DNA of 64,000 nucleotides from Acidobacteriota bacterium (GCA_011523845.1 WTFV01000076.1:999-64998); one strand, 5' to 3'. Shown: positions 15,457 to 63,494, counted from the stretch's first letter. A program made the numbers and translations. The notes: a model not told the origin generated them from the sequence alone.

Positions 15457-17487
15457 CTACGGTATCTGGTCGTCCGGCGTGTCGGGGTCCCAGGGGTCGT
15501 CGAGGCCGATCTCGTTGAGGAAGCGTGACTCGGGGCTCACGTTTCCGCCGTGGCGTCTTCGGAATCCGGCGGTCGTGATCACGAGCCGGTCCATCGCGCG
15601 GGTCATGCCGACGTAGAACAGGCGCCGCTCCTCCTCGATGCCCTCGCGTGTCTCCAGGCTGCGGCTGTGCGGCAGCAGTCCCTCCTCGACGCCGGCGATC
15701 ACCACGGTGGGGAACTCCAGCCCCTTGGCCGCGTGCAGGGTCATCATCCAGACGCGCGCGTCGCCGGGTCCGTCGCCTTCGTCGGCCTCCGACAGCAGCG
15801 ATTGCCGGTTCACGAAGTCGGCCAGCGTCGGCTGTTCGGCGCCGTGCTCGTAGTCGTCGGCGGCGGCGACCAACTCCATCAGGTTGTCGACCCGGTCCTC
15901 CGCCTCGGCGACGTTGCCGTCGCGGGGAACTTTCAGGTACCCGGTGCGGCCTATCGCGTCCTCGACGGTTTTGCCGATGGCGGCGCCGGCCGCGTTGCCG
16001 CGCATCTTGTCGATCAGCTCGATGAATGCGTACATCCTCGCTGCCGCGCGGCCCGTCAGCCTGCGCTCGGCGCAGCCGGCGTTCAGTCGGGACCAGAGCG
16101 ACGCCCGCTCGCCCGCTTCGTCTTGCGGGGGTGCGAACAGCGTTCCCGCCGGTTCTTCGCGCACCGGCGGTCCGGCCGCCTTGTCGATGCTGCGCGGCCC
16201 GATGCCGCGGGGCGGGGAGTTGATGATCCGCCGGAGGCTGACGTCGTCGTGCGGGTTGACGATCACCTTCAGGTAGGCGAGCGCGTCCTTGATCTCCTTG
16301 CGCTCGTAGAACCGGATGTTGCCGACGATGTGGTAGGGGATCCTGGCGCGGCGCAGCGCGTCCTCGACGAGGCGCGACTGCGCGTTGGTCCGGTAGAGCA
16401 CGGCCGTCTGCCGCGGGGCGTTCGGCCGGGCGGCCACGATGCGGACGATGGCGTCGGCCTCGTCGTGGTCGGACTCGGTGCGCAGGTGCTCGACCTCGGC
16501 GCCCGGTGCGCGCCCGGTCCACAGCGTCTTGTCGGCGCGGTCCTTGTTGCGGGCGATGAGCGCCGCCGCGGCGGAGACGATGTTGCCGCTCGAGCGGTAG
16601 TTGCGCTCGAGGTTGACGATGGTGTGCTCGGGGAAGTCCGCCTCGAAGGTCCGGATGTTTCCGATGTCGGCTCCCCGCCAGCCGTAGATGGCCTGGTCGG
16701 GGTCGCCGACGGCGCAGACGTTGCGGTGGTCGCGGGCGAGCAGGTACGTCAGCCGGTACTGGGCGTGGTTGGTGTCCTGGTACTCGTCGACGAGGACGTG
16801 GCGGTAGCGGGCGGCGTACTTCTCGCGGACGGCGTCGTGGTGGCCCAGCAGGGATACGGCGCGCAGCAGCAGGTCGTCGAAGTCCAGTGCGCCGGCCCGG
16901 CGCAGGATCTTCTCGTACTGCTCGAAGCAGTCGACGAGCTGCGCGTTGCGGTAGCCCTCCTCGGTGGCTCGCAGCTGTTCCGGGGTGAGCATCCTGTTCT
17001 TCCACTGGCCGATCTGCCAGACGACGCTGCGCGGCGGTAGCGAGTCCTTGTCGTAGTCGAGCTCGTCGATCGCCAGGCGTGCGGACTTGAGCTGGTCGGC
17101 GGTGTCGTAGATGGTGAAGCTCGGCGCGACCTGCACGTGCCGGCCGTCGGCCCGCAGGATGCGGGCGCAGAACGAGTGGTAGGTGGACAGCAGGGCGGTC
17201 GGGCCGCGGTTTCCCAGCAGTTGGACGAGCCGGGCGCGCATCTCGTTGGCGGCCTTGTTGGTGAAGGTGATGCCGAGGATGTGCCGGGCCGGCACGGTCC
17301 CGGAGCGGACGAGCCAGGCGATGCGGTGGCAGATGACGCGGGTCTTTCCAGAGCCGGGTCCGGCGAGGATGAGCAGGGGTCCGCCCGGGTGGCATACGGC
17401 GGCGCGCTGTTGGTCGTTGAGGCCGTCGAGCAGCGTCTCGGGCGGGTTGTGGGTCGTTGTCGGCGGGGGCGGTGCGATCTGTGTCAT
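15457..17487 (-). CDS. UvrD/PcrA/Rep-family ATP-dependent DNA helicase
   Basis: AGPGSGKT (Walker A), ITFTNKAANEM, VLVDEYQDTN (DExx box), YRS, and LHAAKGLEFPTVVIAG...VGMTRA in the correct order. 676 aa. Confidence 0.95.
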   Translation of the reverse strand: MTQIAPPPPTTTHNPPETLLDGLNDQQRAAVCHPGGPLLILAGPGSGKTRVICHRIAWLVRSGTVPARHILGITFTNKAANEMRARLVQLLGNRGPTALLSTYHSFCARILRADGRHVQVAPSFTIYDTADQLKSARLAIDELDYDKDSLPPRSVVWQIGQWKNRMLTPEQLRATEEGYRNAQLVDCFEQYEKILRRAGALDFDDLLLRAVSLLGHHDAVREKYAARYRHVLVDEYQDTNHAQYRLTYLLARDHRNVCAVGDPDQAIYGWRGADIGNIRTFEADFPEHTIVNLERNYRSSGNIVSAAAALIARNKDRADKTLWTGRAPGAEVEHLRTESDHDEADAIVRIVAARPNAPRQTAVLYRTNAQSRLVEDALRRARIPYHIVGNIRFYERKEIKDALAYLKVIVNPHDDVSLRRIINSPPRGIGPRSIDKAAGPPVREEPAGTLFAPPQDEAGERASLWSRLNAGCAERRLTGRAAARMYAFIELIDKMRGNAAGAAIGKTVEDAIGRTGYLKVPRDGNVAEAEDRVDNLMELVAAADDYEHGAEQPTLADFVNRQSLLSEADEGDGPGDARVWMMTLHAAKGLEFPTVVIAGVEEGLLPHSRSLETREGIEEERRLFYVGMTRAMDRLVITTAGFRRRHGGNVSPESRFLNEIGLDDPWDPDTPDDQIP

Positions 17488-58295: not shown

Positions 58296-58748
58296 TCAGC
58301 GGCCCGCGAGCGTCTGCAGGACGCTGACGACGTTGCGGCGCGCCGCGTCGAGCGCGAGCAGGTGGCGGACCGGGTGGTCTCTCGACGCCTCCGGCTCGCA
58401 GCGGGCGAGCACGTGGTCGAGCGCGGTGCTCATCGTCTCGGTCAGGATGCGGATGGCCTCGATCGGGGTGAGGGCCTGCACCCGCCACTGCGGCCTGCCG
58501 TTGTCGGCCTCGTCGCAGCCGTTGGTCCAGTAGACCGCGGCGGCGGCGTCTTCGGGCAGGTGGAACTCGTCGATCCGCTCGACGGGCAGCCACAGCAGGT
58601 GGCCGGTGATGGGGTCGCCGAGCTCGGCCAGCAGGTGGCCCTCGTCGCTCAGCAGCTCGCACAGCTGCTCGTACTCCGGGGTGTCCGGGTCGACGGTGCG
58701 TCCGGCGCCGGTGTGGGGATGGTCGTTCAGGTCCAGCTGGTGGATCAT
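58296..58748 (-). CDS. Hypothetical protein (150 aa)
   Basis: MIHQLDLNDHPHTGAGRTVDPDTPEYEQLCELLSDEGHLLAELGDP... ATGA overlap with the giant upstream gene. Confidence 0.65.
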   Translation of the reverse strand: MIHQLDLNDHPHTGAGRTVDPDTPEYEQLCELLSDEGHLLAELGDPITGHLLWLPVERIDEFHLPEDAAAAVYWTNGCDEADNGRPQWRVQALTPIEAIRILTETMSTALDHVLARCEPEASRDHPVRHLLALDAARRNVVSVLQTLAGR

Positions 58749-61700
58749 CGTGTCGCCGCCGCGTCGTACGTATTGTCGAGGAGCCGGTTCAGGTCGGCGC
58801 TCTGCTTCCACGCGCCCGCGGCCGGGGACGGCGGGCGCGGCGGGTTGTCGGGGACGGCGCCGACGTCGGAGTCTGCACTGCGCCGGCCGATGGCCCGCAG
58901 GTCCGGGCGCTCGTCCTCGGGGGTGACCGTCCGCCCGTGGCGGTCGACCTGCTCGCACGGGACCCGGCGCTCCCTGGCCATCTCGAGCACGTCGTCGCCG
59001 CCGCGGTCCCCGGCCTTCGCGAAGGAGATCACCAGGTGCGGCTTGCGCTCGTCGAGCATGTCGGCGTCGCGGCACCGGATCGCCTCGCGGCGGTAGGCCT
59101 GCGGCCCCTTCTCGTGCCACTCCTTCGCGGTCTCGAGCTCGTCGAGCGCCTCGCGGCGGGCGGGGTCCCCGGCGTCTTCGGCCGCGTGCTCCGGACCGTG
59201 GTCCGGCGCCGCGGCCGGCGGCGGGTACCGCCGGTCGATCGCGGCGCGCTCGGCGTCGTAGTTCTTCGCCTTCGCCGCGTCCGCCTCGTATTGCGCCTTC
59301 GCGCCGTCCCAGTCGGTCCTGCAGACGTCGCAGGGCACGCCGGCCTCGCGCGCCCAGTTGGCCGCTGTCGCCTGCGCCCCCCGGCTGTCGCCGGTGACGA
59401 TGCGCATCGGGGCGCCGGCGATGCGCCGGCGCAGCTCGTCGAGCTTGCCGTAGACATCGGCGGGCCGGTCGTGCTTCCAGGAGCCGGTGACCAGAACGCG
59501 CACCTCGCGTGTCGGCTCGGCTGCCGGCGGTGGCGGCGGCGCGGGCAGCGGTGGCTGGACCGGTGCGCGGAAGGTCCCGTCGGGCTCGGTGATCTCGTGC
59601 CGGACGCTGCGGTTGTGCTCGTCGAGCTTCTGCCGCATGTCGGCGGGCATCGGCCGGTCCGGGGCGTTGCGCCGCTCGGCGCGGGCGTGCTCGGCGCTGG
59701 CGCGCAGCGCGGCGATGTTCTCGTCCATTCCTGCGAGCTGCTCGTCGCTGGCGCCGGCCTCGGCGATCTTCCCGCGGTAGGCCTCGAGCCGGTCGGCGGC
59801 GACGTCGTCGGGATGCTGCGGCTGGTCGGGACCGGGCCGCTCGACGGGCTCGCGCTCTTCCGGCGCCGGTGCGTGGTCCCAGTCGTCGTCGCCGGGGTCG
59901 AAGACGTGCGTGTCGACGGGGGCGCCGGTCTCGCGGCCGGGTGTTTGCCCCTGTTGCTGCGCCTGCGACTGGGCCCGGGTCTCGGCGCGCTCGCGCTCGC
60001 GTTCGATGCCGGCGGCCCAGCTCGCGGCCTGCGAGAGCACGTCGCCGTGGCAGGCTTGCGGGGCGCAGTGGCAGGCCAGCTGCTTGCCGTCGAGCTTGGC
60101 GAGCCTGTCGAGGTCGATCTTGCCGGAGTCGATGGCGTCGGCCAGGTAGCTGCGGTACTGTTCGAGGACCTCGTGCCGCTCGGCCGGGTCGTTGCGGTCG
60201 CGGAGCGGGAACGGGTTGCCCCAGTCGGTCTTGCGGTCGATGCGCACCGCGGCGCCGGAGCGCACCGCGTGGAAGGCGCTCCGCTCGCGCAGGTTCAGGG
60301 TCGGGGGCGCCTCGGCGGGCGCATGTCCCGCCTGCGCCCACGCGGCGTCGGCGGCCTTCCGGCCGAGGCGCCGGCTCGCCGCCGCGGCCGTCCGGCCCTC
60401 GACGGGCACCACCCACGCCGGGTTCGGGTCGGCCTGCTCGCGGCTCCGGCGGGCGTGTTGCAGGTCGGCCAGCTCTCCGGTGGGGGTGTGGTTGACGCCC
60501 CGCGCGTCGACCGACTCGACGGGGACGCCGGCCCGTCTCGCGGTGGCGGCCAGCCGCTCGACGGACTGCTCGCCGCGCGGGAAGGTGACGGCTGCGTGCG
60601 GCTTCTGCTCGGCGATCATCCGCAGGCGGGTCAGGTGCGCCTCGTCGGGGTCGGCGGTGCGGTACTGGTCGCAGTGCACGCCGCGGCGCCTCGCCCACGA
60701 GGCGGCGACCGTGGACAGGTCCTCGCCGCCGGGCTGCATCGCGACGGCGATGCGCAGCGCCGCCGGGTGGGCCCTGGCGAGCACCTCGTCGAGCTTGGCG
60801 TGGACCAGGCGCTGCTCGGCGCCGGCCTTGACGCCGCCGATGACGATGCGCGCCTCGCCGTGGGTGTGCGGGTCGTTGTTGGGCAGCTTGGCGATGCGGC
60901 CGATGCCCGGCGCCTCGACGGGGCCGGCGGGCCGTCCGCGTGCGGCCGACCGGCGGGCGATGGCGGCGACGTCGTGGAGCTGGCCGGTATCGGTGAGCGT
61001 GGTGCGCGAGACCGGGTCGATCTCCTCGACGGCGACCTTCGCCTTCGCGGCGATGTCCATCATCATGCGGGTGCCGCGCGACTCGCCCTGCGGGAAGGCG
61101 ACGACCAGCTGCGGCTGTCCCTCGGTCAGCATCCGCTCGTTGCGGCGGTAGCCGGCGGAGCGGCCGTAGCGGTCCCACTCGGCGGGGTACTCGTCGCAGG
61201 GGACGCCGTGGCGCTTCGCCCAGTCGGCGGCGAGCCTGTCGGCGCCGCGCGCCGCTCCGGAGACCACCCGCATCGGGATGCCGCCGAGGCGCTGGCGGAC
61301 CTCGTCCAGCTTGGCGTCGACGAGCCCGCGGTCGGTGAAGTCCCGGCTTCCGCATACCAGCACGCGCGCCTCGACGTCCGGCGTCGGCGCGGCGGGGTTC
61401 TGTTCGGGCATCGGGGTCTCTCTCGATGAGGCGTCCGGTCTCGGCGTCGTGCCGGCCGGCTCCGGCCGCGCGTGCGGCGGCAGGCCGAGCGTGGCGGCCC
61501 ACTTGTCGACGTCGTGGACCGTCCCGAGCTGTCCGGCGCGGTCGAGTCCCACGAGCATCGCGGCGGCGCGGGCCTGGCAGGCGACCGATTGTTCCGGGCG
61601 GTGGAACTGGTCGCTGAAGGCGGTGTAGCCGTGTAGACTGCCCGTGGGGTGGGCGGCTGCGGCGGCCTTGATCCAAAGGCGGTCGTAGAAGGCGCTGCCC

Positions 61701-62053
61701 GAGGCGGCGGGCCAGAACGTGCCGCCGTGCTGGAACCCGGTCAGCGGCCCCGCGGCGCGGCGCCCGCGGTCGCGGCGCTTGGCGTCGAACCCGTTGGGCA
61801 GCGGCGAGCCGTCGGGCCCGCGGTCCCCGTAGCACTTGGCGGCCTGGTAGACGCTTTCGACCGGCAGGTTGCGGTCGTCGTCGGTGTCCGCGGCGCGCAG
61901 GCGCATGGCGCTCAGGCCGCGGCCGAGCGGTTCGTCGCTGCGGCTGCTGATCTCAAGGACCTGCAGGCCAGCGGGAGCGCCGGCCGCATCGTGATGCTCG
62001 GCCACGAACGGCGGGCGGTCGAGCGGGGTGAACCAGGTCGTGGGTCTCGCCAT
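58745..62053 (-). CDS. 1102-aa multidomain protein: unassigned N-terminal domain, DUF2493/SLOG, degenerate DUF2493-like, DUF4326, linker, then a third DUF2493/SLOG-like domain
   Basis: Domain 1 is RVLVCGSRDFTDRGLV...MRVVSGAARGADRLAADWAKRHGVPCDEYPAEWDRYGRSAGYRRNERML...LVVAFPQGESRGTRMM. The DUF4326 region is IDRKTDWGNPFPL...EQYRSYL...LDGKQLACHCAPQACHGDVL. The last domain is VRVLVTGSWKHD...MRIVTGDSRGAQATAANWAREAGVPCD... Confidence 0.82.
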   Translation of the reverse strand: MARPTTWFTPLDRPPFVAEHHDAAGAPAGLQVLEISSRSDEPLGRGLSAMRLRAADTDDDRNLPVESVYQAAKCYGDRGPDGSPLPNGFDAKRRDRGRRAAGPLTGFQHGGTFWPAASGSAFYDRLWIKAAAAAHPTGSLHGYTAFSDQFHRPEQSVACQARAAAMLVGLDRAGQLGTVHDVDKWAATLGLPPHARPEPAGTTPRPDASSRETPMPEQNPAAPTPDVEARVLVCGSRDFTDRGLVDAKLDEVRQRLGGIPMRVVSGAARGADRLAADWAKRHGVPCDEYPAEWDRYGRSAGYRRNERMLTEGQPQLVVAFPQGESRGTRMMMDIAAKAKVAVEEIDPVSRTTLTDTGQLHDVAAIARRSAARGRPAGPVEAPGIGRIAKLPNNDPHTHGEARIVIGGVKAGAEQRLVHAKLDEVLARAHPAALRIAVAMQPGGEDLSTVAASWARRRGVHCDQYRTADPDEAHLTRLRMIAEQKPHAAVTFPRGEQSVERLAATARRAGVPVESVDARGVNHTPTGELADLQHARRSREQADPNPAWVVPVEGRTAAAASRRLGRKAADAAWAQAGHAPAEAPPTLNLRERSAFHAVRSGAAVRIDRKTDWGNPFPLRDRNDPAERHEVLEQYRSYLADAIDSGKIDLDRLAKLDGKQLACHCAPQACHGDVLSQAASWAAGIERERERAETRAQSQAQQQGQTPGRETGAPVDTHVFDPGDDDWDHAPAPEEREPVERPGPDQPQHPDDVAADRLEAYRGKIAEAGASDEQLAGMDENIAALRASAEHARAERRNAPDRPMPADMRQKLDEHNRSVRHEITEPDGTFRAPVQPPLPAPPPPPAAEPTREVRVLVTGSWKHDRPADVYGKLDELRRRIAGAPMRIVTGDSRGAQATAANWAREAGVPCDVCRTDWDGAKAQYEADAAKAKNYDAERAAIDRRYPPPAAAPDHGPEHAAEDAGDPARREALDELETAKEWHEKGPQAYRREAIRCRDADMLDERKPHLVISFAKAGDRGGDDVLEMARERRVPCEQVDRHGRTVTPEDERPDLRAIGRRSADSDVGAVPDNPPRPPSPAAGAWKQSADLNRLLDNTYDAAATR

Positions 62054-62217
62054 CGTCGTGCTCCGAGTGTAAGGGCCGGGTCGGCCCGGCCGGAGTTGGA
62101 GCGCGTGGTTGCCGGGTTGTCCGTGCGCGCGCGGAGGGATGAGGAACAGTCGGGATGCGGGTCGACCGCGTGCGCGGAGAGGTGGTTCCGAGCGGGACGT
62201 CGATCGTCAGGCTGTAG

Positions 62218-62241
62218 GGGTGATCTCCGTGCACGGAGTGG
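62218..62241. promoter_or_regulatory. GGGTGATC box followed by a perfect 14-bp palindrome (CTCCGTGCACGGAG, 62225..62238) in the divergent promoter gap
   Basis: The palindrome was verified by hand. It shares the GGGTGATC head and the ...GGAG tail with the 37270..37476 repeats. It lies ~165 nt upstream of the 62053 start and ~90 nt upstream of 62329. The operator role is inferred. Confidence 0.35.
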
Positions 62242-62328
62242 CGCGGCGTGGGGCGTCCGTTCGACCCCGGAGAGGGGGCGGTCTGCGCCCGCGTGCGGTG
62301 GTGCCGCTTGCAAGCCGTGGGGGCTGTC

Positions 62329-62652: not shown

Positions 62653-63014
62653 CTGCGGTCGTTTCCGAGGACGAGGTCGCATTCCCCGGAGGCGTTCAGG
62701 ACCGTCCGGACTTCCAGGTCTTCGGGGATTCCGTATCCGCTGATCCGGATCCGGGGCGGACTCGCCGTGCGCGTGAACCTCACGCACGCCTCGTGCGGCC
62801 TGCACCGCGTGACGGCGAACCCGGTGTCGCCGGTCGTGTTCGAGCTTGAACTTCGCCGTCGTCTCCAGCCGGTTGCGGGCGTCGGTGTCTTGCTCTGCCG
62901 CTTCGCGGAGCTCGAGGAACGGGGCGGCGACGCCGCACCTCAACCGGGCCTCGACCCAGTCGAAGCCGTCTGCTTGCCGCGGCGCTGCTGGTGCAAGCTC
63001 TTCCTGTGCTCATC

Positions 63015-63494
63015 ATGCGTGTTTCCGTTCTGCCGGCGCTGTGCGCCTCTCTCGGTGTCCTTCATCCGCCGCCGGCCCTGGCCCAGCCTCCGGCTGCGGA
63101 GCTGCCGTACGGCGAACTGGTCGCGGAAGCGGCCGCCCGGTACCGGGTGGATCCGCTGCTCGTGCATGCGATGATCGCGGTCGAGTCGGAGCATCGGCCC
63201 GATGCGGTTTCGGCGGACGGGGCGCAGGGCCTGATGCAGCTGATGCCGCGCACCGCGCGGATGCTGGGGGTCTCGGACCCGTTCGACCCGCGGGCCAACG
63301 TCGAGGGCGGGGTTGCATACCTGCGGCGGCTGGCGGACGAGTTCGGGACGGTGCTGGCGCTGGCCGCCTACAATGCCGGGCCGGGCGTGGTGCGCGAGCA
63401 CGGCGGGGTGCCCCCGTTCCCGGAGACGCACGGGTACGTGCGCTCGGTGCTGCTGGGGCTCATTCGGCTCCGGGCCGGGTTTCCGGCGCGGTGA
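63015..63494 (+). CDS. SLT-domain lytic transglycosylase with a signal peptide
   Basis: MRVSVLPALCASLGVLHPPPALAQ. Then ...LVHAMIAVESEHRPDAVSADGAQGLMQLMPRTA... and ...ALAAYNAGPG... Confidence 0.85.
   Translation: MRVSVLPALCASLGVLHPPPALAQPPAAELPYGELVAEAAARYRVDPLLVHAMIAVESEHRPDAVSADGAQGLMQLMPRTARMLGVSDPFDPRANVEGGVAYLRRLADEFGTVLALAAYNAGPGVVREHGGVPPFPETHGYVRSVLLGLIRLRAGFPAR

Follow-up and report, generated by a model that had tools for sequence, protein, structure and literature searches.

DNA ADP-ribosylation by DarT enzymes has recently been recognised as an anti-phage and toxin mechanism. Good protection of cells from DarT1 is given only by the NADAR proteins that are linked to DarT1 (Cihlova et al., PMC11125620). 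In one of these antitoxins, the NADAR of Escherichia coli C7, residues E88, K95, and D171 are needed both for the hydrolysis of guanine-linked ADP-ribose (ADPr) and for rescue from DarT1 (Schuller et al. 2023, PMC11543638). Domains of the SLOG, Macro, NADAR, and DUF4326 families occur in phages and giant viruses either as fusions or linked to one another (Iyer et al. 2021, PMC7824862; 2022, PMC9503650), and it was proposed in the same studies that such fusions divide the labour of degrading host ADPr-derived signals, as a form of counter-defence. Here we describe a polyprotein of 1102 amino acids (aa), encoded on the minus strand at positions 58745..62053 of a 64,000-nucleotide stretch from an Acidobacteriota bacterium (GCA_011523845.1, WTFV01000076.1:999-64998; the whole stretch is called the window below). 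It joins a NADAR of the DarT1-antitoxin type to three YAcAr/DUF2493 modules of the SLOG kind and a DUF4326 module. We read it, with a probability of roughly 0.55, as a multi-enzyme “ADP-ribose eraser” that would serve the counter-defence of an integrated mobile element.

The N-terminus of the polyprotein has its fold, its family, and its Glu/Lys/Asp residues in common with the DarT1-associated NADAR antitoxins (8BAT, E. coli C7), whereas it has no linked DarT1 and is fused to about 900 further residues. With the viral SLOG/NADAR/Macro/DUF4326 fusions it shares its domain set, carried by an invasive element in a single polypeptide, and its proposed role against NAD/ADPr-based host immunity. Unlike them, it has five modules with three SLOG copies (two of them degenerate) and a NADAR of the antitoxin lineage, and it sits on what is best read as an integrated acidobacterial element. 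This kind of fusion (SLOG, NADAR, and DUF4326) has already been described computationally, and its exact five-module form is rare. Polyvalent proteins (Iyer et al. 2017, PMC5512222) are likewise large, multidomain proteins of mobile elements with disordered linkers and, as with them, the neighbourhood is telling, since in related elements the polyprotein gene lies close to genes for ParB-domain proteins and methylase-Sbno helicases; however, NADAR is not mentioned in that study, and the polyprotein has no peptidase, ADP-ribosyltransferase (ART), or lysozyme domain. Finally, type III Avs is reported to be inhibited by the small phage protein ORF83 (SLOG/DprA-like), homologues of which occur as fusions with DUF4326 (preprint 10.1101/2025.06.06.658234). 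ORF83 is a single-domain anti-Avs protein whose proposed AMP-binding Arg-Asn and Thr resemble the RRNE and SRGT motifs of SLOG module 1, a likeness that, as with the presumed homology, is drawn from the published description.

Modules of the polyprotein

The modules and the regions between them are listed below, all on the minus strand. “Model” refers to an AlphaFold2 model of the full protein built on 25 family members (mean predicted local distance difference test, pLDDT, 78.5), in which the folded units are aa 1-200, 228-395, 400-565, 585-700, 748-820, and 850-1057, with disordered linkers between them.

58745..62053, minus strand: ATG-started open reading frame (ORF) of 1102 aa
61454..62053, minus strand: NADAR of the DarT1-associated (antitoxin) type, aa 1-200 (PF22397, 8BAT, catalytic residues)
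61373..61453, minus strand: disordered Pro/Glu/Ala-rich linker, aa 201-227 (pLDDT, alignment)
60869..61372, minus strand: YAcAr/DUF2493 SLOG module 1, aa 228-395 (PF10686, 79 bits; phrog_289)
60359..60868, minus strand: degenerate YAcAr-like SLOG module 2, aa 396-565 (PF10686, 26.3 bits; folded model)
59954..60301, minus strand: DUF4326 module, aa 585-700 (PF14216, phrog_464, invariant motifs)
59594..59812, minus strand: three-helix region of no known family, aa 748-820 (model, alignment)
58883..59509, minus strand: YAcAr SLOG module 3, split by an insert, aa 849-1057 (PF10686, 48 bits)
59045..59311, minus strand: charged helical insert in module 3, aa 915-1003 (alignment, model)
58745..58882, minus strand: low-confidence tail, aa 1058-1102, and stop codon (pLDDT < 50)

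A preliminary description of the window had recognised a single long ORF with four modules (three DUF2493 and one DUF4326), all of which hold under profile searches of the whole protein and of each module (module 2, taken alone, below the cut-off), but it had left the N-terminal domain unassigned, as one that only faintly recalls NADAR/YbiA. This domain is a clear DarT1-associated NADAR. PF22397 (NADAR-DarT1) matches aa 23-184 with E 1.3e-29 and 103.7 bits, far above the 27-bit cut-off, and the general NADAR family is not reported at E <= 1 in the Pfam search of the whole protein. The top sequence match in the PDB (phmmer) is the Geobacter lovleyi NADAR 8BAT (E 1e-14). The structure prediction and Foldseek search that had been suggested earlier also gave a NADAR fold, with 8BAT again on top (E 2.7e-8, TM(target) 0.68) and a pLDDT of about 87 for the module.

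In an alignment with three plasmid NADARs and one NADAR of the same genus, Glu66, Lys73, and Asp148 are invariant across the family and the plasmid DarT1-linked NADARs, and they fall on E89, K96, and D172 of the DarT1-linked NADAR of a Klebsiella plasmid. Allowing a numbering offset of one residue, which we infer, they would correspond to E88, K95, and D171 of E. coli C7. The position of Glu173, which was reported to be dispensable (PMC11543638), is occupied by Phe. A NADAR of the DarT1-antitoxin type whose catalytic triad is intact points beyond the breakdown of soluble signals, to the removal of ADPr from guanine in DNA, and the module is a predicted N2-guanine ADP-ribosyl hydrolase.

All three plasmid NADAR homologues (from Deinococcus, Klebsiella, and Bacillus) have an annotated DarT/DUF4433 gene just upstream, which is directly adjacent in Klebsiella and Bacillus and lies across an IS3 in Deinococcus; this order of DarT followed by NADAR is the canonical toxin-antitoxin (TA) arrangement. 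Because no DarT gene was found in the window or its contig, the NADAR of the polyprotein is, as far as sequence can tell, an orphan antitoxin-type module; a tblastn search with two plasmid DarT1 proteins also gave no match in the window. In the rest of the same genome, PF14487 matches only a broken DarT beside a macro-domain DarG on another contig, C94 (L007 312-1812): the truncated DarT of 104 aa, which is missing model positions 38-145, is directly upstream of an intact 427-aa DarG, and the pair is a decayed DarTG2 system whose antitoxin survives.

The family PF10686 (YAcAr/DUF2493) matches the protein in three stretches (whole-protein Pfam search, E 3e-38). The three SLOG-like modules named in the preliminary description are therefore present, but they had been treated as alike, and the conserved motifs are complete in module 1 only. 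In comparison with a stand-alone plasmid YAcAr and a 213-aa YAcAr-DUF4326 fusion of a Vibrio phage, module 1 keeps all four family motifs (GxRD, RGAD, GYxRN, and (R/K)GT) as GSRD, GAARGAD, GYRRNE, and SRGT, module 2 has all four replaced, and in module 3 they are in part degenerate (GSWK, SRGAQ, RCRD, and DRGG). Scanned alone, modules 1 and 3 score above the cut-off with 79 bits (phrog_289, E 3e-51) and 48 bits, respectively; module 2 was rightly called degenerate, since its 26.3 bits (E 6e-6) just miss the cut-off of 28.2 bits. Module 2 is modelled at pLDDT 82-93 with a Rossmannoid strand/helix pattern, and its ratio of non-synonymous to synonymous substitution rates (dN/dS), 0.34, is similar to that of module 1, 0.29. 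The fold matches of module 1 in BFVD, at a root-mean-square deviation (rmsd) of 1.5-2.5 Å, are numerous stand-alone YAcAr proteins from phages and giant viruses, with some YAcAr-DUF4326 fusions besides.

Judged by these motifs, module 1 is likely to be the sole catalytically competent SLOG module here, and modules 2 and 3 probably serve as a scaffold, as partners in a pseudo-oligomer, or as sensors of ligands. In distant orthologues, it is module 3 that retains GSR, GAD, and GYxRNE and module 1 that is more degenerate, which suggests that one competent SLOG copy suffices. The charged insert that interrupts module 3, already seen in the preliminary description, is restricted to the closest orthologue subgroup (10 of the 25 aligned family sequences; it is missing from the other 15), and is modelled as two helices, 915-942 and 964-1003. 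It should be mentioned that the Foldseek matches of the whole model to GT-B glycosyltransferases and epimerases, with a TM of about 0.2 and an rmsd of about 19 Å, were judged to be chance superpositions of tandem Rossmann-like modules.

PF14216 (DUF4326) matches aa 598-674 with E 4e-19 in the whole protein, and the module alone scores 74.7 bits against a cut-off of 25 (phrog_464, E 8e-28). Its invariant residues in the 25 sequences, DRK(T)-WGNP and CHC-x-P-x2-CH, are followed by a long C-terminal helix. Among the regions between the modules, the Pro/Glu/Ala-rich linkers described earlier are well exemplified by aa 201-227, where pLDDT falls below 50 (aa 203-223), dN/dS is 0.87, and length varies in the family alignment. 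The three-helix region (helices 748-765, 770-795, and 804-820), flanked by disordered linkers, is assigned to no family when aa 690-848 are scanned alone against Pfam; H747 and G767 are invariant in the 25-member alignment, and a shorter relative (P0052) has the region too, with DUF4326 on one side of it and YAcAr on the other. Calculated for each module from seven orthologues, dN/dS is 0.29-0.43 in the folded modules, degenerate module 2 included, and 0.5-0.87 in the linkers, the three-helix region, the insert (0.67), and the C-terminal tail; the value is below 1 in every module, and all the folded modules are under purifying selection. As a side observation, the last residue, R1102, is Arg in at least 90% of the 25 family members, down to 39% identity, and the tail before it is variable and disordered; a translocation or processing signal is possible.

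The module order is conserved in homologues as low as 36% identity. When 5.8 billion proteins were searched by word index, the matches formed 44 clusters at 90% identity; they reach down to the same 36%, and almost every cluster has the same Pfam set. In an exhaustive HMMER search of 1.84 billion representatives, 22,923 proteins match at least one module, mostly small stand-alone YAcAr proteins, and the complete five-module architecture occurs in only 4 clusters at 50% identity. Other combinations are frequent: NADAR-YAcAr-YAcAr-DUF4326 (723 aa), DUF4326-helical-YAcAr (530 aa), a tandem YAcAr-DUF4326 repeat (1411 aa), and giant YAcAr-containing proteins of 2853-4072 aa, one of which also has DUF4326; minimal YAcAr-DUF4326 fusions are present in Vibrio phages and marseilleviruses. 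The earlier impression that such a concatenation is unusual is thus right for the exact five-module order, but pairwise and larger fusions of these modules are widespread and not exceptional. A split form also exists (L041 8766-13959 and L042 6711-11676), both in another genus and at a further site in one genome of this one: a 685-708-aa protein with NADAR and two weak YAcAr modules, and a separate DUF4326 gene of 147-168 aa. The split genes adjoin ParB-domain proteins and the methylase-Sbno helicase, a fusion-versus-neighbourhood pattern. The fusion puts YAcAr/DUF2493 and DUF4326 in the same pathway, and the natural fusion and split versions form a construct set for assigning their functions.

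Proposed counter-defence role and the DarT systems of likely hosts

In the proposed mechanism, the NADAR module would strip ADPr from guanine N2 in DNA, an activity that is known in homologues and suggested here by the catalytic residues, and would thereby undo the damage done by host ADP-ribosyltransferases of the DarT1 type (or of the pierisin/ScARP type). SLOG module 1 and DUF4326, following the published predictions, may bind or degrade the released ADPr or NAD-derived nucleotides. Because the gene is the first of its long operon, as the preliminary description had noticed, and heads a 29-kb one-directional gene array, it would be expressed early after entry. The general idea in that description of an anti-defence or nucleotide-signal-degrading polyprotein fits both the evidence and the published predictions; what it missed is the predicted de-ADP-ribosylation of DNA.

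I also consider a more specific version, in which a DarT1 antitoxin was acquired by a mobile element, separated from its toxin partner, and fused to a disposal line made of an active SLOG N-glycosidase and DUF4326, so that one polypeptide would strip ADPr off the incoming DNA and destroy the product. It would be the first enzymatic anti-DarT factor. This version is tentative, and on balance we lean somewhat against it. The DarT counter-measures named in the literature cited here are a variant of a phage DNA polymerase and the protein kinase of T7. If the captured-antitoxin version is true, it offers a first biochemical handle on two large families, YAcAr and DUF4326. AdfA is another DarT counter-measure, and to our knowledge neither it nor the polymerase variant nor the kinase removes the ADPr modification. 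An orphan DarT1-type antitoxin on a mobile element would, if the eraser reading holds, be a direct enzymatic counter-measure to DarT.

Among the 121 genomes sampled from the order, nine have DarT-family matches, and within the genus 10 of the 15 genomes do. In this soil acidobacterial genus, the systems are common and of three kinds: macro-linked, NADAR-linked, and ARH-linked. In one genome of the genus, a NADAR gene comes directly after a DarT1-like gene, the sole DarT1-NADAR pair found in the genus, and two genomes (G007 and G011, the latter at locus L052) have DarT1-like genes. In G007, one such gene is followed by an 866-aa ARH (DraG-like) protein: the locus (L051 1629-6305; G007:C4:1877128-1881804) is an operon for a 463-aa UvrD-like helicase fragment, a 231-aa DarT1-like ADP-ribosyltransferase, and the 866-aa protein, whose N-terminal domain is an ARH/DraG-like ADP-ribosylglycohydrolase. 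This operon could represent a DarT system with an ARH antitoxin instead of a macro or NADAR one. In other words, DNA ADP-ribosylation is common among the likely hosts, and its fit to the specificity expected of the NADAR is partial.

Several observations weigh against the eraser reading: (i) most of the intact DarT systems sampled in the order are of the DarT2-macro type, with DarG following, and thymidine-ADPr, the DarT2 type, is not reversed by NADARs (PMC11125620), so that the common local DarT systems, with one DarT1-NADAR pair in the genus, are weakened as candidate targets; (ii) the NADARs of phage gp30.3 and YbiA are active in vitro and give no rescue of cells from DarT1 (PMC11125620), so that protection in the cell cannot be assumed; (iii) Arg93, beside the invariant Lys92, stands at the position of the rescue-relevant Lys, K115, if the one-residue numbering offset is assumed here too, and an N-terminal segment of about 22 residues that canonical DarT1-linked NADARs have is missing; (iv) VirB4 and VirD4 were not found in five related genomes, no relaxase is consistently near the gene, and matches to tyrosine integrases are likewise not consistently near it; (v) no capsid, portal, or terminase gene is present in the annotated parts of the related G007 element (about 55 kb on the upstream side of the orthologue and 34 kb on its downstream side), and the family has no match in the viral contigs of IMG/VR; and (vi) we know of no member of the YAcAr or DUF4326 families whose activity has been measured. 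To these should be added the DUF4326 module, a separate AlphaFold2 model of which (pLDDT 79) has no PDB neighbour at E < 2. DUF4326 was proposed to be a clade within the rhodanese-phosphatase superfamily (PMC9503650), and because of this result the proposal is not corroborated: structural support for a phosphatase fold was not found, and a BFVD entry called “dual specificity phosphatase / DNA processing protein” matches by name only.

Neighbouring genes and the host element

Three features next to the polyprotein gene are needed for what follows.

58296..58748, minus strand: coupled downstream gene of 150 aa, no known family (ATGA overlap, GC3 0.97)
62054..62247, no strand: intergenic region of 194 nt, presumed operon promoter region, between the polyprotein gene and a divergent 134-aa gene
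62991..63494: SLT lytic transglycosylase gene, beyond the divergent 134-aa gene (PF01464, E 2e-25)

The ATGA stop/start overlap agrees with the translational coupling to the next gene that had been proposed earlier (GC3 in the list is the G+C content at third codon positions). Copies of this 150-aa gene, 63-82% identical, are directly 3' of the orthologue in eight related loci, and its product has no match in Pfam, PHROG, PADLOC, or the PDB. Downstream of the polyprotein gene come four orphan genes, a radical-SAM enzyme, and an AbiEii-like cassette, and further on a metallophosphoesterase, ThyX, a T4-type RNA ligase, a GHKL ATPase, and a class II ribonucleotide reductase (RNR). The close relatives examined share the order SLT, polyprotein, 150-aa, 214-aa, 95-aa, 159-aa, radical-SAM, and ThyX; the SLT gene is close upstream of the orthologue in seven related loci, including that of a relative with 40% identity. 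The sigma-70 consensus was not found in the 194-nt intergenic region.

The left 30 kb of the window consists of chromosomal genes (AcrB, TonB-dependent receptors, a hybrid histidine kinase, and UvrD, of Gram-negative type), and the related loci derive from metagenome-assembled genomes of Vicinamibacterales (Acidobacteriota). Across the window and the related elements, the neighbours of the gene include ParB, the methylase-Sbno helicase, TopA, AbiEii, RNA ligase, ThyX, and RNR. In the G007 element, the upstream genes encode a ParB-domain protein, an N6/N4 methylase, a 1501-aa Sbno-type helicase, and a topoisomerase, and the element ends at RNR, with a TonB-dependent receptor and UvrD beside it, chromosomal genes of the kinds that also lie beyond the island in the window. 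The best reading of the host DNA is an integrated mobile element of Vicinamibacterales, in keeping with the two diverged copies of the gene that some genomes carry. Between the Sbno-type helicase and the topoisomerase, G007 also has genes for Cse1, Cas7 (Cas_CT1975), Cas5, and Cas6e (L028 6301-11572), and Cas3- or Cas1-type domains are not among the neighbouring genes. Genes for UvrD-family helicases flank the G007 element on both sides (L031 14568-16634 and L029 11807-14188), and the UvrD gene of the window, at 15457-17487, is beyond the RNR end of the island; these flanking genes might mark an insertion region or a duplicated target.

Other kinds of elements were considered. Genes of a type IV secretion system or of virions were not found near the polyprotein gene or the relatives examined. 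A classical conjugative element is argued against by the missing VirB4 and VirD4 in five related genomes and the lack of a consistent relaxase or integrase, and a prophage by the lack of virion genes in the annotated G007 regions, by neighbours nearly without PHROG matches, and by the lack of an IMG/VR match. As for known defence systems, PADLOC gives only a weak ShosA-like SLOG similarity.

Alternative explanations

Apart from counter-defence, the polyprotein might belong to a nucleotide-metabolism complex for the DNA synthesis or base modification of the element, in which NADAR and SLOG would be N-glycosidases acting on modified or damaged nucleotides and DUF4326 a phosphatase, with the radical-SAM enzymes, ThyX, and RNR of the operon and the dCTP deaminase and methylases of its relatives as partners. 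The operon and its relatives are indeed rich in genes for nucleotide metabolism and DNA modification; E. coli YbiA cleaves the N-glycosidic bonds of riboflavin intermediates (PMC11543638), LOG-type SLOGs are phosphoribohydrolases, and DUF4326 is found fused to replication and restriction-modification components (PMC7824862). We nevertheless think this explanation unlikely, because the NADAR belongs to the DarT1-antitoxin lineage, with Asp and not the YbiA-type Glu at the D171 position, because the polyprotein is constant among relatives while the downstream cargo differs, and because the split NADAR-SLOG gene elsewhere adjoins ParB and the methylase-helicase and no metabolic genes.

Slightly less likely again is a TA or defence module borne by the element, in which the polyprotein would be the antitoxin or immunity partner and would neutralise in cis, in the way of NADAR and DarT1, an unrecognised ADP-ribosyltransferase or nucleotide-modifying toxin encoded by one of the coupled orphans (150, 214, 95, or 159 aa). 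Members of PF22397 are antitoxins, the 150-aa orphan directly follows every close orthologue examined, and the element carries other TA-like cassettes such as AbiEii. However, Pfam, PADLOC, PDB sequence, and tblastn searches detected no DarT or ART in the operon, the window, or the contig, and a toxin hidden among the coupled orphan genes gave no sequence-level match in the Pfam, PHROG, PADLOC, and PDB sequence searches. The gene order also argues against it, since the toxin gene comes first in the DarT1-NADAR pairs examined and here the polyprotein gene itself is first; and in the 40%-identity relative, where the polyprotein is retained, nothing matches the 150-aa gene.

The 1102-aa ORF is genuine and no assembly artefact. 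It has no internal stop codon, and its GC3 is 0.94 throughout. Orthologues with 67-74% identity are present in eight of the 14 other genomes of the same Vicinamibacterales genus, six of them full-length, stop-free, and 71-74% identical. That small genes were fused by an assembly or frameshift error can be dismissed: spurious long open frames are common in high-GC DNA (the window has 70% G+C) and disordered linkers do separate the modules, but the even GC3, the identical protein on two independent assemblies, the stop-free orthologues (several in genomes of one to four contigs), the architecture retained at 36-49% identity, and dN/dS below 1 in all modules rule it out. Two genomes of the genus have two diverged copies each of the polyprotein gene. 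The genome described here also has a second, partial NADAR-DarT1 copy, a 311-aa ORF on a contig of 2.3 kb, C78 (L004 427-1362), which is 55% identical to aa 4-142 of the polyprotein and is probably a fragment of a second copy of the element or an assembly remnant.

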